A DNA stretch of 64,000 bases from a virus (taxonomy: Duplodnaviria; Heunggongvirae; Uroviricota; Caudoviricetes), in IMG/VR virus record IMGVR_UViG_3300022562_000399. One strand, 5' to 3'. Numbering within the stretch: the stretch's first letter is position 1; every line of letters starts with the position of its first letter. Under the pieces are notes generated by a model. The model was not told where the DNA came from, ran no database searches, and saw nothing but the letters and a program-made list of their open reading frames with translations. This document shows, piece by piece, positions 5,903-59,775 of this stretch. Position numbers and translations under genes: made by a program.

Positions 5903-6442
5903 CTAGGCCTGGGCTAGAGTTTCGTTGCAACTATCTGCAACTGGCTTCAAGTACCAAATGAATCTGGATGGACCGGTGTTGCCAAAGTAAAACCACCAGA
6001 ACTCGTGAACGGAGATGGTGTCTACGTGCTCACACGTAAGCATCCAATTCAAGAACGCCTTGGCGGCAGGAGACTCGGCCGCGTCCGGCCACAGCTCCAG
6101 CACGTCCACCGTGTTCTCGTCAGCACGCAGCTTGGCTACTAGGCCCAGCTTGTCGGGTCGGTGCCGCTCTCCGCCGTAGCCCCAGACCCACATGCACTGG
6201 AAGGAGTCGCACTCGTCCGGCTTGTCCTCCTGGATGGTGCACCCCTGCTTCCCGCCCAGTTCTGGGATCGCACCAACGAAGTGGCACATGACCATGGTGG
6301 GCTTGTTCAGCGCCGGGATCGCGAACGCCTGGCAACAGCCAGTGCAGCCGTTGCAGGGTCGGTCGGGTTCGTGGGGTCGCTGGGCTGGGTCTCGCTGGGT
6401 CAGCTTGACACCCTTGCGGTTCAGCTTGTCGGAGCGTGCCAT
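5903..6442 (-). CDS. Cys-rich hypothetical protein, possible metal or Fe-S binding
   Basis: Trimmed from ORF 5903..6817. Motifs CNGCTGCC...C...C...ECDSFQC. The N-terminal 125 aa of the listed ORF is a junk extension overlapping the upstream gene. Confidence 0.35.
   Translation of the reverse strand: MARSDKLNRKGVKLTQRDPAQRPHEPDRPCNGCTGCCQAFAIPALNKPTMVMCHFVGAIPELGGKQGCTIQEDKPDECDSFQCMWVWGYGGERHRPDKLGLVAKLRADENTVDVLELWPDAAESPAAKAFLNWMLTCEHVDTISVHEFWWFYFGNTGPSRFIWYLKPVADSCNETLAQA
5925..5940. repeat. Palindromic 16-mer TTGCAACTATCTGCAA (putative operator) upstream of the portal gene
   Basis: Perfect inverted arms TTGCA / TGCAA around the ACTATC core. Lies ~45 nt upstream of the portal start. Confidence 0.5.
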
Positions 6443-7062
6443 GCCTTCTCCCAACGGGCCAACGCTGCGGGCTCGTACTCCAGGATCAACTCCTCCAAGT
6501 ACGGAGTCATGATCTCCATGGGCTTCGACTCGTTCACTTTGCCGGGAGGCAACATGTCCACTTCCTGCTCGGCCATCTCCATGGCTCGTTGAAAGCCCAA
6601 GGCCATGGACTCCGTCTTCCAAACAAAGTCGCACGAGTCTCCGATCATCTGGTCGTACAGTCGTCCCAAGTAGCCGGGATAGTTGCGAACGGTCCAGTGC
6701 ACGAAGTCCGGGAACGGGGGCACCCTTCGGAAGTCCTGCTTCATGCGATCCAAGATCAGCACTCGGCCTTTGAATCCGTGTTCCCCCATGCGGTATTGGT
6801 AGTAGCTGTTGTACCAACTGACTGGGTGTCGCACGGTTGCAAATCTCAGCCTGCCTGGAAAGTGGATTGCTTCGTACCTAACCGTGAGCAATCTCTCCGG
6901 GTCCACTCTATTTCCGATGGGCCAGTCGTGTCCTCCAGGCCTCTCGCCCTTCTCGTGGGGGGTATAGCCAAGTCCATTCAGGTTGACAGTCTCCACCACC
7001 CACGTGCCGCCACACTTCGGAACGTGCACGAAGGACCACCCGTTACCATTGCCGATGATCAT
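6421..7062 (-). CDS. PAPS-dependent sulfotransferase family protein (~213 aa)
   Basis: 5'-PSB-like motif FVHVPKCGGTW and 3'-PB-like motif VRHPVSWYNSYY. The ATG lies 3 nt after the DNA polymerase stop. Trimmed from ORF 6421..7203. Confidence 0.55.
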   Translation of the reverse strand: MIIGNGNGWSFVHVPKCGGTWVVETVNLNGLGYTPHEKGERPGGHDWPIGNRVDPERLLTVRYEAIHFPGRLRFATVRHPVSWYNSYYQYRMGEHGFKGRVLILDRMKQDFRRVPPFPDFVHWTVRNYPGYLGRLYDQMIGDSCDFVWKTESMALGFQRAMEMAEQEVDMLPPGKVNESKPMEIMTPYLEELILEYEPAALARWEKAWHAPTS

Positions 7063-9368
7063 GCCGCTAGTTTCACCTCTTCCAGTTCGCCCCAGCTTGG
7101 CCCCGCCTCGAAGTCCACCGGGAACTTCAACGCTGGGGAGTACCCGAACACCTTCTCGATGGGCCGGTTCTCGCAGATCTCTTTGACGGCCAGGAGTATC
7201 CACGGCAAGTCCTCGGTCTTGGCGATGCCGGTGACACTGTCATGTGTCATTGCTACCAGCCCAGCCTCCGGGACCTCCTCCTCGATCTCCGCGATGGACC
7301 ACAGCATGAGGTCAGACAGCATCGACTGCACTGGGGAGTTGATCGCTTGCCGTTCAGCTTGGTGCTTCAATGCGTCGTCGCGCGAGTTGATCAGGGGCAG
7401 GTGACGGATGCGTCCCAACGGAGACTCGATCTGGTGCCGCTCTCGCGCGTAAGACAGCACGCGCTCGTACCACGGGTTCAAGTCGGGGTACGTGTCGAAG
7501 AACAACTCACGCTCGTGCCTGGCCATGGCCATCGTGATCTTCTGGCCCCAGGTACTCCAGCAGTACACGACGAAGCCGCCCGCGCTCATGCGGTAGACGA
7601 ACCCGAAGTTGGCGGCTTTGGCGCCGGATCGCGCCGCACTGTACTTGCCGGGGTCGGACTCCTTCAACAGCATGAACTCGGGCAGGGGCATCCCGATGCG
7701 GGCCGCCGCAGTCTTGGCGTGCAGGCTCATGCCCTGGTTGTAGGCTTCGAGCATTGCCCGCTCGTGCGCGAGCGTTGCAACTATGCGCAGTTCACCCTCA
7801 CTGTAGTCCACCTGCCAATACGAGTAGCCCTCGGGTGCCGTGTAGCACTTGCGCAACCTCTTCGCGATGGGCCCGTGCTTGGGTAGCGTCTGCATCGCGG
7901 GCGCCGTGCACGCGAGGCGTCCGGTCACCGTGCCGCGCTTCTTGTCGTCGTGCACGCCAACGCCGGAGAACAGCATGTACGAGGGATGGAACAGTCCGTC
8001 CTGCCGAAGGTGAGACAGGAACCCGTCGATGTAGGTGGACCTCGCCTTGGAGATCTTCGAGATCTTGCCCATGGCCTGGGCGAAGGGGCCACCAACCGGA
8101 TGCGTCTCGAACATGTCGAGATGTTCCTTGCTGGTCTTCGGCTCCTGCTTCTTCTCGGTCAGCAGCACAGGCTTCAAGTTGAGGCCCAGAGGTGTGAACA
8201 GAAAGTCTCGCAACAGAGCTGGACGCGACAGGCTCAAGTCGTCGGCGTACTTGGCTTTGATCCTCGGGGTGAGCATTGCCAGGGCTTCCTGCTCGGCCGC
8301 ATTCTCTTCCTTCACCAACTCGGATCGCAACTTGGCGAACGCCTCGACGTTCACCGGGATGCCGCGCGCCTCCATCTTCGCGAAGGCGATCTGGGCGGGG
8401 TGCAGAATGTGTTGGTAGAACTTGGTCAGCTTCGAGTGCTTGACCAACTCCGCGCGCATGTGCTGGGCCACGCGGAAGCAGGCGTCCGTGTCGCCGCCGA
8501 TGTACGGCAGCATCTCGTCCTTCGGCACCTTCTCCATGTGTGCCTTGTCGTGCTTCTCGTTGAACTCGTCGTCGTAGCCGCCGATGGGAGTGTAGAGCTT
8601 GGCGTGCAGGTTAAGATTGTTCGGTCGGTTCTCGTTCAGCAGAGACCCGATCAGCGTGGTGTCCAACGTATAGTTGGTGCACGACAATCCCCACTTGATC
8701 CGCAACCAGTTCAAGTCAAAGCCGCCGAAGTTGGCGCCCCAGAGCTTGACCTTGGGGCTGTTCAGCAACCAGTCGATCTCCTCCAACTGCTCGTGCGTTG
8801 GGCCCTCGGGGTAGGTGTAGATCACGTGCGACTCACCAGGCTTCACGGTCACGCCGATGCACACGATCTGGGCGCCGGGATCTTGCGGCACCACTCCCAT
8901 GGTCTCCAAGTCCAGCACCGTGGGCACGCGCACCGTCCACGACTGGATGTAGTCGATGATCTCTCCGAAGGAGTCCACGTACTTGTACGCGCCGACCTCC
9001 GGGGTCAGCTTGCCGGTCATTTCCGCACGCAGGGCCAGCCGCACGTCCCAGCGGATCTCGTCCAGCTTCGAGGGGTCAGCGGCTATCGAGCCGGGGGAGT
9101 AGGTGCACAGGAACTTGTGGCCCCCCTCGCCCAACGTCAGCTTGCCACGCAGAGAAGTGACCGTGCGGTTCTTGGGGTACACGCCCAAGTTCTGCAACAC
9201 CTTCAAGGGGTCGCCACCCATCGACAGCAGCACACCGTTGCCTGGGTCGGGGATCGACCCCTGACCAACGCGCCACAGCTTCACAGGCGGGCGTCCTGGG
9301 GTGGAGTCCAACACCGGACCCACCGCGCGCACAACTTTCTCTCGGTCCCCTTGGTAGTAGATCAGCAC
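7059..9368 (-). CDS. DNA polymerase I family A with 3'-5' proofreading exonuclease (T7-like DNAP)
   Basis: Exonuclease motifs LDLETMG, GANFGGFDLNWL and YIGGDTDA. Polymerase motifs TGRLACTAPAMQTLP, motif A VDYSEGELRIVATLA, motif B KAANFGFVYRMS and motif C VAMTHDSV. Confidence 0.9.
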   Translation of the reverse strand: MLIYYQGDREKVVRAVGPVLDSTPGRPPVKLWRVGQGSIPDPGNGVLLSMGGDPLKVLQNLGVYPKNRTVTSLRGKLTLGEGGHKFLCTYSPGSIAADPSKLDEIRWDVRLALRAEMTGKLTPEVGAYKYVDSFGEIIDYIQSWTVRVPTVLDLETMGVVPQDPGAQIVCIGVTVKPGESHVIYTYPEGPTHEQLEEIDWLLNSPKVKLWGANFGGFDLNWLRIKWGLSCTNYTLDTTLIGSLLNENRPNNLNLHAKLYTPIGGYDDEFNEKHDKAHMEKVPKDEMLPYIGGDTDACFRVAQHMRAELVKHSKLTKFYQHILHPAQIAFAKMEARGIPVNVEAFAKLRSELVKEENAAEQEALAMLTPRIKAKYADDLSLSRPALLRDFLFTPLGLNLKPVLLTEKKQEPKTSKEHLDMFETHPVGGPFAQAMGKISKISKARSTYIDGFLSHLRQDGLFHPSYMLFSGVGVHDDKKRGTVTGRLACTAPAMQTLPKHGPIAKRLRKCYTAPEGYSYWQVDYSEGELRIVATLAHERAMLEAYNQGMSLHAKTAAARIGMPLPEFMLLKESDPGKYSAARSGAKAANFGFVYRMSAGGFVVYCWSTWGQKITMAMARHERELFFDTYPDLNPWYERVLSYARERHQIESPLGRIRHLPLINSRDDALKHQAERQAINSPVQSMLSDLMLWSIAEIEEEVPEAGLVAMTHDSVTGIAKTEDLPWILLAVKEICENRPIEKVFGYSPALKFPVDFEAGPSWGELEEVKLAA

Positions 9369-9797
9369 TCAGTCCAACTCCACCTCTGTCCACTCACTAC
9401 CCACCAAGGCGTAGCAGCGCGTGGCCCCTGGCCGCACCAATCGCAGGGCAGCCTCCACCGTCTCAACCTTCGACATTTCCCACAATCGGTGTGTGTCCGT
9501 CACCGGCACGAGGTGCAAGTCTAGCACGTACATGAGCACACCACAAGGGCCACTTGCAAATGCAACCCCAAAGTTGCCGGGCCCTCGCAGAAGCAGTCCT
9601 TCGCTCGACACGTCCAGCACCGCCGAGATCACTTTGAGGGTGAACGGGAACTCGAACGCTCCCTCTCGCGCGAACTTCTCGACGCAGCCCCCAACCAACA
9701 GCGGGCGACCGTCCTTGGTCTCCATCCGGATCGGGGCGCCTAGCACGTCCGCGATCTTCTGGAAGCGCATCACTTCTTGGGTGACAGCGTCAGCCAT
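9369..9797 (-). CDS. Hypothetical protein, possible DNAP accessory
   Basis: Stop directly abuts the DNAP GTG start. Real start likely MADAVTQ... Trimmed from 9369..9896. Confidence 0.35.
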   Translation of the reverse strand: MADAVTQEVMRFQKIADVLGAPIRMETKDGRPLLVGGCVEKFAREGAFEFPFTLKVISAVLDVSSEGLLLRGPGNFGVAFASGPCGVLMYVLDLHLVPVTDTHRLWEMSKVETVEAALRLVRPGATRCYALVGSEWTEVELD

Positions 9798-59722: not shown

Positions 59723-59751
59723 AAGGTAGGGCATGTGGACCCCCGTGTCAA
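59723..59751 (-). promoter_or_regulatory. Conserved phage promoter: TTGACA-N17-TACCTT
   Basis: ggggTTGACAcgggggtccacatgcccTACCTTgaaggtggaggtaatgagacATG. Confidence 0.55.
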
Positions 59752-59759
59752 CCCCTTCA

Positions 59760-59775
59760 GTGCAGATAGTTGCAA
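59760..59775. repeat. 16-mer (reverse orientation) GTGCAGATAGTTGCAA next to the promoter at 59723-59751
   Basis: Reverse complement TTGCAACTATCTGCAC. Confidence 0.45.

Follow-up and report, generated by a model that had tools for sequence, protein, structure and literature searches.

A dispersed 16-bp dyad in a tailed-phage genome is a conserved element of its clade and a candidate operator of a phage-encoded global DNA-binding protein

The DNA analysed here, a stretch of 64,000 nucleotides (hereafter the window) from the Caudoviricetes record IMGVR_UViG_3300022562_000399 of IMG/VR, carries a palindrome-like 16-mer that recurs between positions 5925 and 59775 and that a first-pass annotation had put forward as the operator of a phage regulator. 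Essentially all genes of the window are located on the minus strand, as judged from codon usage and the GC content of third codon positions (GC3), and they follow the order early small-gene region, AAA-ATPase, DnaB, primase, helicase, RecA, resolvases, terminase, PPDK-like kinase, DNA polymerase and portal. About 21 near-identical sigma70-type promoters of the form (TAGGGC)TTGACA-N17-TAnnnT were detected by a custom promoter scan, which was used because a generic promoter and terminator scanner was uninformative for -10 boxes of the TAnnnT type. These promoters constitute the largest direct-repeat families of the window, and the TAG stop codon of the upstream gene is often part of the conserved block upstream of them.

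The exact 10-mer core GCAACTATCT was found eight times, at 5927, 11601, 19906, 33792, 41889 and 46180 on the plus strand and at 55715 and 59764 on the minus strand, and did not occur in any of 100 dinucleotide-preserving shuffles of the window, indicating that the repeat is genuine. For the 16-mer TTGCAACTATCTGCAA, 14 distinct sites with three or fewer mismatches were counted against 0.15 expected. A position-weight scan, with a matrix of the motif copies whose information content spans 17 positions, yielded 10 strong copies of the pattern TTGCAACTATCT[G/T]CA[A/C] (5925, 11599, 19904, 23178, 33790, 41887, 46178, 53845, 55711 and 59760) and about five weak ones (7775, 15971, 36273, 39424 and 50911; Table 1). 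The near-variants listed in the first-pass annotation were thereby recovered (15971, 23178, 36273, 50911 and 53845), and those at 7775 and 39424 were added as weaker sites; at 7775, coding constraint may largely account for the match. The earlier positions hold as starts of the 16-mer, the 10-mer beginning 2 nt later, but 50921 had to be moved to 50911 and 36274 to 36273. What had been described as a perfect inverted repeat is an imperfect palindrome: TTGCAA and the centre CTATCT are nearly invariant, and the second arm varies among TGCAA, TGCAC, TTCAC and TTCAA. Both orientations are used, as had been noted, with eight strong copies on the plus strand and two (55711 and 59760) on the minus strand. 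In the sense direction the eight read (G/T)TG(C/A)AGATAGTTGCAA, and the other two are opposite.

With respect to genes, the strong copies are concentrated at gene ends. Eight of the 10 are found no more than 30 nt from a called stop codon, compared with 13.8% of all window positions (P=4.5e-6), and the variable arm itself, as (G/T)TGAAG, supplies the TGA stop of the upstream open reading frame (ORF) at 11599, 23178 and 53845, and probably at 19904. Four copies adjoin one of the sigma70-type promoters: those at 11599 (-35 box TTGACT), 46178 (the promoter of gene 46111..45011), 53845 (TTGACA) and 59760 end 7, 7, 7 and 8 bp upstream of the -35 box, respectively, placing the dyad centre near -50.5. 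The proposed abutment of the motif on the upstream side of the -35 box is thus seen at these four sites. The second geometry proposed, a position in the 5' leader between promoter and ribosome-binding site (RBS), was not borne out, as no copy lies within a demonstrable promoter-to-RBS leader. The copies that precede an RBS (19904, 55711 and 23178) are located at intercistronic junctions with no recognisable promoter upstream: the copy at 19904 is directly followed by the RBS (GGGAGGA) and the ATG at 19888, that at 55711 stands immediately before the RBS and GTG (55694) of a helicase-loader-like gene, and that at 23178 has the RBS and ATG (23152) of the following gene 26 nt downstream. The copy at 5925 lies about 80 nt upstream of the portal gene (portal by homology), with no -35 box close by. 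At 59760 the copy comes immediately after a strong intrinsic terminator (-35.7 kcal/mol, z = -3.4), and the same order of terminator, motif and promoter is found again in Vibrio phage SIO-2. This terminator, a GC-rich hairpin of about 65 nt with a U-run, is all that a consensus promoter at 59871..59774 (minus strand) drives, an arrangement resembling a miniature promoter-terminator cassette or a small RNA.

Several copies are translated. The copy at 33790 is read as codons 4-9 (LQIVAL) of gene 33814..33404, within a lipoprotein-like signal peptide, where it brings in the rare codons ATA, GTT and GCA. These codons, forced by the in-frame copies, represent 5%, 8% and 11% of their respective codon families, and four of the 41 ATA codons in the window fall within motif copies. 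Such rare codons in translated copies indicate selection on the DNA. A lipoprotein-like gene at 36288..35932 resembles 33814..33404 in carrying the motif or a weak variant of it in the first codons; the two signal peptides are MKRLQIVALACLIMAAFTAWGGC and MQLFAMRAVAALALGGLVAAC, for 33814..33404 and 36288..35932, respectively. At the RNA level no conserved hairpin was observed across the copies, in agreement with the first-pass view that the motif is not a terminator: five of the 10 strong copies gave a fold of 0 kcal/mol, changes in the arms were uncompensated, and scanning of the window with Rfam and ARAGORN gave no match and no tRNA genes, respectively. An intrinsic terminator or structured RNA was rejected on these grounds. 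A coding artefact was rejected because of the intergenic copies, the rare codons and the use of both orientations; a phage-specific promoter because copies occur in both orientations and inside genes; a sigma-54 promoter (TGGCAC-N5-TTGCW) because the GG is missing, the G-to-G spacing is 10 (canonically 11-12 bp), and copies lie in both orientations and in genes; and an UP element because the TGCA arms are conserved and there are sites without promoters. The pattern of the dyad also does not match that of the CtrA, LexA, DnaA, Fur, ArgR or NtrC boxes.

No close relative of the phage was found, and it is a singleton. A megablast search with 12 kb against INPHARED gave no match, the next DnaB among 5.8 billion proteins is 43% identical, a search of IMG/VR for related loci via DnaB found none, and an exact 15-mer scan of IMG/VR gave only single chance matches, in unrelated loci that were reused as a negative control. 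The phage's own contig measures about 103 kb, and a second contig (L119) is an identical piece of the same phage. By protein search, distant syntenic relatives with about 40% protein identity were identified, namely Rhodobacter phage RcZahn, Stenotrophomonas phage Summit (Delepquintavirus) and SIO-2, and the dyad was found in these and in five metagenomic contigs of the same clade (L126-L130). The conservation in related genomes on which the operator idea had been staked was thus observed in all eight relatives examined. In each of RcZahn, Summit and SIO-2, de novo word enrichment returned the same dyad as the top signal: RcZahn carries about 20 copies of TTGCAAT[CT][AG]A[CT]TGCAA, mostly true palindromes; Summit carries 26 exact copies of TGCAATCAATTGCA against 0.05 expected, plus about 10 variants, in an interleaved orientation of 18:8; and SIO-2 carries about 20 copies of TG[CA]AAT-YR-ATT[GT]CA, where YR is a pyrimidine-purine step. 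Counts of TGCA-N6-TGCA, observed over expected, were 11/0.96, 27/2.65, 37/3.0, 9/0.45, 8/0.79 and 6/0.13 in six genomes (9-46x enriched) and 13/0.61, 4/0.19 and 3/0.31 in L128, L129 and L130, and the centre was YR in 96 of 98 copies of the six genomes. In 1.1 Mb of unrelated viral contigs, used as the control, TGCA-N6-TGCA occurred 23 times against 31 expected, with a YR centre in four of the 23. An invariant central YR step is expected of a dimeric protein that kinks DNA at the dyad, given the flexibility of this step.

The family consensus is TGCA-N2-YR-N2-TGCA, of which the arms are common to the phages of Vibrio, Stenotrophomonas, Rhodobacter and unknown hosts, and the N2 blocks are phage-specific. 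The 16-mer of the window is the version of this clade-wide 14-bp dyad that reads TGCAAC-TA-TCT[G/T]CA, and the window and SIO-2 have the arm variant TGAA/TTCA at the same position. Full-text literature searches found no published description of the motif: the papers on the phages DLP3 and RcZahn make no mention of it, a search on the SIO-2 group turned up nothing relevant, and the motif strings matched unrelated primers only. The dyad is a conserved and apparently undescribed cis-element of the whole clade.

In the relatives, where placement was judged by the deposited annotation, copies in gaps or abutting stop codons amount to about 14 of 20 in RcZahn, about 10 of 20 in SIO-2 and about 10 of the 26 exact copies in Summit, well above the share of non-coding DNA. 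RcZahn also has a copy after DnaB, at the same place as the copy at 53845. About 16 of the 26 exact 14-mers of Summit are inside genes, and the in-gene copies of the relatives are mostly in the frame giving (L/V/M)-Q-x-(I/V/L)-A, that is, the frame free of Cys and stop codons. At an orthologous position of an epimerase/dehydratase gene, the dyad is present in both Summit (65126) and RcZahn (97713), encoding G-x-G-x-A-I-N/S-C-N-D with A/T-ending codons. Measured from the 14-mer end, the -35 box lies 8, 8, 8 and 9 bp away in the window, 8, 17, 17, 18 and 38 bp in RcZahn and 5-10 bp in the other relatives, and the promoter-adjacent distances of RcZahn are roughly in helical phase. The spacing of the sites along the genomes is more even than random, with a coefficient of variation (CV) of 0.47 in Summit (P<2e-4), 0.52 in SIO-2 (P=0.002), 0.64 in RcZahn (P=0.03) and 0.60 in the window (P=0.09).

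Among about 18 window-encoded proteins common to all four complete genomes is the 366-aa product of gene 46111..45011. The dyad is located just upstream of this gene in seven of the nine genomes (the window, RcZahn, Summit, L127, L128, L129 and L130), usually right after a RuvC-like gene, and in six of these seven a -35 box follows the dyad at 5-8 bp (8 bp in four), L130 having no clear -35. The presence of the dyad at this promoter in nearly all relatives implies autoregulation. The central domain of the protein has a predicted fold that resembles ParB/KorB DNA-binding domains, which we regard as a lead and not as proof. BFVD gave weak matches to DUF3102, chromosome-partitioning and HeH/Rho-N proteins. 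No sequence match was found in Pfam, NCBIfam or PDB, and Foldseek against PDB was empty; neither the protein nor its 36 homologues matched the ParB_N domain (CTPase, GxxRxxA) in Pfam or NCBIfam, and hhalign against phage ParB_N proteins gave a probability of 0.5%. Since the sequence searches were empty, the likeness to ParB/KorB holds at the fold level only, and membership in that family is not established, the CTPase domain being absent and sequence similarity lacking. No window ORF corresponds to the classical ParB_N proteins found in the relatives, and no gene for a ParA- or KorA-type partner was recognised in the window.

As candidate binders, the first-pass annotation had pointed to helix-turn-helix (HTH) proteins. 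Those at 38160..38354 and 38817..39383 carry HTH signatures, but have no homologue in the dyad-bearing RcZahn, Summit and SIO-2. The MerR-like protein 49474..49911 keeps its position in Summit, SIO-2, L126, L127 and L128, but is undetectable in RcZahn by profile search or Pfam. The product of 46111..45011 is a better binder candidate than these proteins. Between the MerR-like gene and RecA, at 49142..49489 (minus strand), lies a gene for a 115-aa protein without a family match, which all four complete genomes encode and in which the motifs N-L-G and P-C are invariant.

Table 1. Motif copies, sigma70-like promoters and candidate binder genes of the window
Feature	Position	Strand	Sequence and context
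Motif copy	5925..5940	+	exact 16-mer TTGCAACTATCTGCAA, sense TTGCAGATAGTTGCAA; 3' end of ORF 6442..5903
Motif copy	11599..11614	+	TTGCAACTATCTTCAC, sense GTGAAGATAGTTGCAA; TGA (11613..11611) is the stop of gene 12513..11611
Motif copy	19904..19919	+	TTGCAACTATCTTCAA, sense TTGAAGATAGTTGCAA; TGA probably the stop of ORF 20137..19916
Motif copy, variant	23178..23193	+	TTGCAATTGTCTTCAC, sense GTGAAGACAATTGCAA; TGA (23192..23190) is the stop of gene 23369..23190
Motif copy	33790..33805	+	GTGCAACTATCTGCAA; 6 nt past the stop of gene 34122..33811
Motif copy	41887..41902	+	ATGCAACTATCTGCAC; within ORF 42046..41822, 78 nt ahead of its stop; in-frame VQIVAS with ATA codon
Motif copy	46178..46193	+	TTGCAACTATCTTCAC; final codons (VKIVATEA*) of RuvC-position gene 46694..46167
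Motif copy	53845..53860	+	TTGCAATTATCTTCAC, sense GTGAAGATAATTGCAA; TGA (53859..53857) is the DnaB stop codon
Motif copy	55711..55726	-	ATGCAACTATCTGCAC, opposite orientation; final codons of 48-aa ORF 55837..55691
Motif copy	59760..59775	-	TTGCAACTATCTGCAC, opposite orientation; 8 bp upstream of -35 TTGACA
Weak variant	7775..7790	+	TTGCAACTATGCGCAG; DNA polymerase motif A (ELRIVATLAH)
Weak variant	15971..15986	+	TTGCAATCATCTGCAA; within kinase gene 16329..14431
Weak variant	36273..36288	-	ATGCAGCTATTTGCAA; at start codon of lipoprotein-like gene 36288..35932
Weak variant	39424..39439	+	CTGCAACTAGCTGCAC; 57 nt ahead of the stop of exonuclease gene 40606..39380
Weak variant, nearly symmetric	50911..50926	+	TTGCAAATAGCTGCAA; within helicase gene 51287..49950
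Sigma70-like promoter	11563..11591	-	TTGACT-N17-TACCCT; adjoins motif 11599
Sigma70-like promoter of gene 46111..45011	46142..46170	-	TTGACA-N17-TACAAC; adjoins motif 46178
Sigma70-like promoter	53809..53837	-	TTGACA-N17-TACCTT; adjoins motif 53845
Sigma70-like promoter	59723..59751	-	TTGACA-N17-TACCTT; adjoins motif 59760
-35 boxes	59871, 59751, 59396, 59109, 58661, 53837, 53602, 49946, 46170, 43835	-	
-35 boxes (rest)	37090, 30869, 24633, 24063, 22236, 19479, 16678, 13689, 11591, 11054	-	
Candidate binder P0121, 366-aa core protein	45011..46111	-	N-terminus HeH/SAP/Rho-N-like; residues ~100-235 predicted ParB/KorB-like fold; helical C-terminal domain
MerR-type HTH protein, alternative binder	49474..49911	-	Pfam MerR_1 E=1.1e-10; kept in most relatives, not found in RcZahn

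The operator idea stands in so far as the motif behaves as a DNA-level protein-binding site tied to transcription units, given its conservation, its enrichment at gene ends, its distance of 7-8 bp to the -35 box at four promoters and the lack of a conserved RNA hairpin. In-gene copies and even spacing are not explained by a simple promoter operator, and a genome-wide binding protein therefore fits better. Judging from these sequence features, we consider it probable, with moderate confidence, that a global DNA-binding protein, encoded by the phage and controlling its own gene, uses the copies as dispersed operators, in analogy to KorB-OB or to the L5 stoperators, with 46111..45011, whose predicted fold is ParB/KorB-like, as the candidate. 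The motif, its conservation, its placement and selection on it at the DNA level are shown by the sequences; the binding of a protein, its identity and the sign of its regulation are inferred. A conserved phage-encoded dimer would read both TGCA arms and bend the central YR step, and we tentatively propose, as a possibility still short of probable, that this dimer is the product of 46111..45011. It would occupy about 15 sites in the 64-kb window and 20-37 per genome of about 100 kb in the relatives, most of them where a gene or transcription unit ends, preceded by a stop codon or terminator and followed by an RBS or promoter. At the four promoters the dimer would sit near -50.5, touching or competing with the alpha C-terminal domain (alpha-CTD) side of RNA polymerase, and would thus regulate its own gene as well as the early operon (59751), the replication operon (53837) and the polymerase/structural operon (11591). 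Where it binds between cistrons or within genes, it might act as a roadblock, a silencer, an insulator or an organising point; such a role would account for the concentration of sites at gene ends with stop codons embedded in them, as well as for their even spacing and for the rare codons accepted to keep them. Since the adjacent promoters are near-consensus, repression or insulation is favoured over activation.

Several observations weigh against this proposal. The promoters next to the sites are already near-consensus, so that activation seems needless, and a repressor site would not usually be centred at -50.5. Only four of about 21 similar promoters have a site. SIO-2 lacks a copy at the promoter of its 46111..45011 homologue, and that of L126 is only degenerate. 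The proximal spacing of 5-10 bp in the relatives means that the geometry is not strictly fixed, and the many Summit sites deep within genes, together with their even spacing (CV 0.47, P<2e-4), point to a genome-wide, promoter-independent role.

The closest functional analogues are the KorB-OB sites on plasmid RK2 and the stoperators of mycobacteriophage L5, followed at a greater distance by the dispersed sites of ParB, Noc, RacA and N15 SopB. As with KorB (IncP plasmid RK2, ParB family) and its OB sites, dispersed palindromes of 13-16 bp include one at the candidate regulator's own promoter, and global autoregulation is proposed. In contrast to KorB, the candidate lacks a detectable ParB_N/CTPase domain, and its sequence is not similar to that of KorB; the sites are centred near -50.5 here and at about -40 for KorB-OB; no KorA/IncC partner was identified; and the setting is a virulent-looking or temperate siphovirus of about 100 kb with modified DNA and more sites (20-37). 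In L5 and other Cluster A phages, the repressor gp71 uses tens of stoperators of 13-16 bp genome-wide, preferring short intergenic gaps and stop codons of co-directional genes. The dyad likewise has many copies at short gaps and stops (8/10 strong copies within 30 nt) and, in the window, mostly one orientation. Stoperators, however, are asymmetric and strictly oriented, whereas the element here is a dyad, with orientations of 8:2 in the window and an interleaved 18:8 in Summit, and with mostly true palindromes in RcZahn; the phylum and the protein family also differ, and the window yielded neither an immunity repressor nor an integrase. ParB-parS, Noc-NBS, RacA-ram and N15 SopB resemble the present case in having palindromes of 14-16 bp at many dispersed positions, including positions in genes, which are bound by dimeric HTH proteins; unlike the dyad, those sites are not placed relative to -35 boxes, and no partition ATPase was found here. 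The distances of about 8, 18 and 38 bp in RcZahn, suggesting dependence on the face of the helix, recall Class I activator sites (MarA/SoxS at about -52/-62, CRP at -61.5). Unlike at such sites, the adjacent promoters are near-consensus, making activation needless, and most copies have no neighbouring promoter.

The alternative that survives best, although we regard it as unlikely, is that the main function of the sites is to organise, segregate or silence the genome, as parS-like centromeres or loading sites, as condensation anchors or as stoperator-like blocks to elongation that silence a plasmid prophage, and that promoter adjacency is secondary. The spacing more even than random in Summit, SIO-2 and RcZahn (P=0.09 in the window), the exact Summit copies in genes (about 16/26), the tolerance of rare codons to keep sites and the ParB-like predicted fold of the candidate binder all agree with such a role, as does the finding that the relatives DLP3 and DLP5 are temperate, DLP5 having been isolated as a phagemid (PMC7326821). 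Against such a role, one orthologous promoter has its -35 box at a nearly fixed distance from the site in six genomes (8 bp in four, 5-8 bp overall) and the sites are strongly enriched at gene ends, and in the window neither a ParA-type partner or ParB_N protein nor any sign of a temperate lifestyle was found. There is also a wider view of the global DNA-binding protein proposed above, speculative and, in our judgement, rather improbable as it stands, in which a widespread clade of hypermodified-DNA siphoviruses of 80-120 kb (including RcZahn, Delepquintavirus and SIO-2-like phages) would share a phage chromatin or insulator system, a genome-wide, evenly spaced dyad array that is maintained in genes despite its codon cost and bound by a hitherto unrecognised CTPase-less ParB/KorB-fold family. 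Instead of serving as an ordinary promoter operator, such a system would split a one-directional genome into transcription units and possibly silence or organise a plasmid-prophage.

It is quite improbable that the dyad is instead the operator of the MerR-type protein 49474..49911, a dimeric winged-HTH protein that would act like RacA with its dispersed ram sites. Its MerR_1 HTH is significant (E=1.1e-10), NCBIfam gave weak matches to HspR and RacA, and the gene keeps its place after the helicase gene in Summit, SIO-2, L126, L127 and L128; but RcZahn, with about 20 dyads of the same arms, has no homologue by hmmsearch or Pfam, and the gene's own promoter (-35 at 49946) is without a motif copy. 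An operator of the usual MerR-family type was rejected because the sites lie upstream of the -35 and not between the boxes, the promoter spacers are 17 bp against 19-20, and the protein was not detected in RcZahn.

Still less probable is a binding site for a host transcription factor, used by the phage for host-dependent control or for titration of the factor. The dyad TGnAAn-YR-nTTnCA resembles the generic operator of the LacI/GalR family (TGnAAnCGnTTnCA), and both the variable positions (TGCA vs TGAA/TTCA) and the central YR presumably fit that pattern; no Pfam-recognisable LacI-type protein was found among the phage proteins scanned. Against a host factor, the arms are the same across phages of Vibrio, Stenotrophomonas, Rhodobacter and unknown hosts and only the centre is phage-specific, the heavily modified DNA of the relatives should hinder host factors, and the site is tied to the promoter of a conserved phage gene. 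Least probable of all is a site-specific nick, recombination or replication signal like the single-strand interruptions of T5, tf and phiKMV, for although the window shows an orientation bias of 8:2 among strong copies, with the switch flanking DnaB and the initiator region, and the sites are regularly spread over coding and non-coding DNA, the near-perfect palindrome of the relatives with both orientations interleaved (Summit 18:8) would give double-strand cuts without polarity, and neither a fixed -35 distance nor the order terminator-motif-promoter is expected for nicks.

Other genes of the window and of its relatives were noted in passing. The minus-strand ORF 3692..3, which runs off the window directly after the portal gene, exceeds 1230 aa and contains a Mu F-like head-morphogenesis domain (PF04233), and at the N-terminus it resembles Summit gp2 ('ParB-like nuclease domain protein'). 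Intein or homing-endonuclease domains are present in replication genes of L127 (1-223) and L128 (3148-5517), with LAGLIDADG in DnaB and Hom_end in the helicase, and the window phage is without them. A gene set of the hypermodification type is located at 28670..28047, 20855..20118, 16329..14431, 14165..13686 and 12513..11611; the set includes a MazZ-like dATP/dGTP diphosphohydrolase N-domain (PF18909), a ThyX-like enzyme, a PPDK-like kinase (phrog_18609) and two phosphatase-like proteins.

DLP3 DNA is resistant to 15 restriction enzymes, and DLP3 and DLP5 have a temperate or phagemid lifestyle (PMC7326821). With DLP3 DNA modified, the binder would have to read modified DNA. The clade that carries the dyad includes phage-therapy candidates against Stenotrophomonas (DLP3 and Summit) and Vibrio phages of aquaculture. 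The dyad occurs throughout the clade, is open to experiment and is linked to a family of proteins with no assigned function, and with the product of 46111..45011 it offers a concrete candidate regulator-operator pair; it also provides a means of marking operon boundaries in poorly annotated genomes. The system may exemplify global control, KorB-like or stoperator-like, of a phage genome whose DNA is hypermodified. If the binder is a CTPase-less protein of the ParB/KorB fold, it would extend this superfamily and show sequence-specific reading of thymine-modified DNA.

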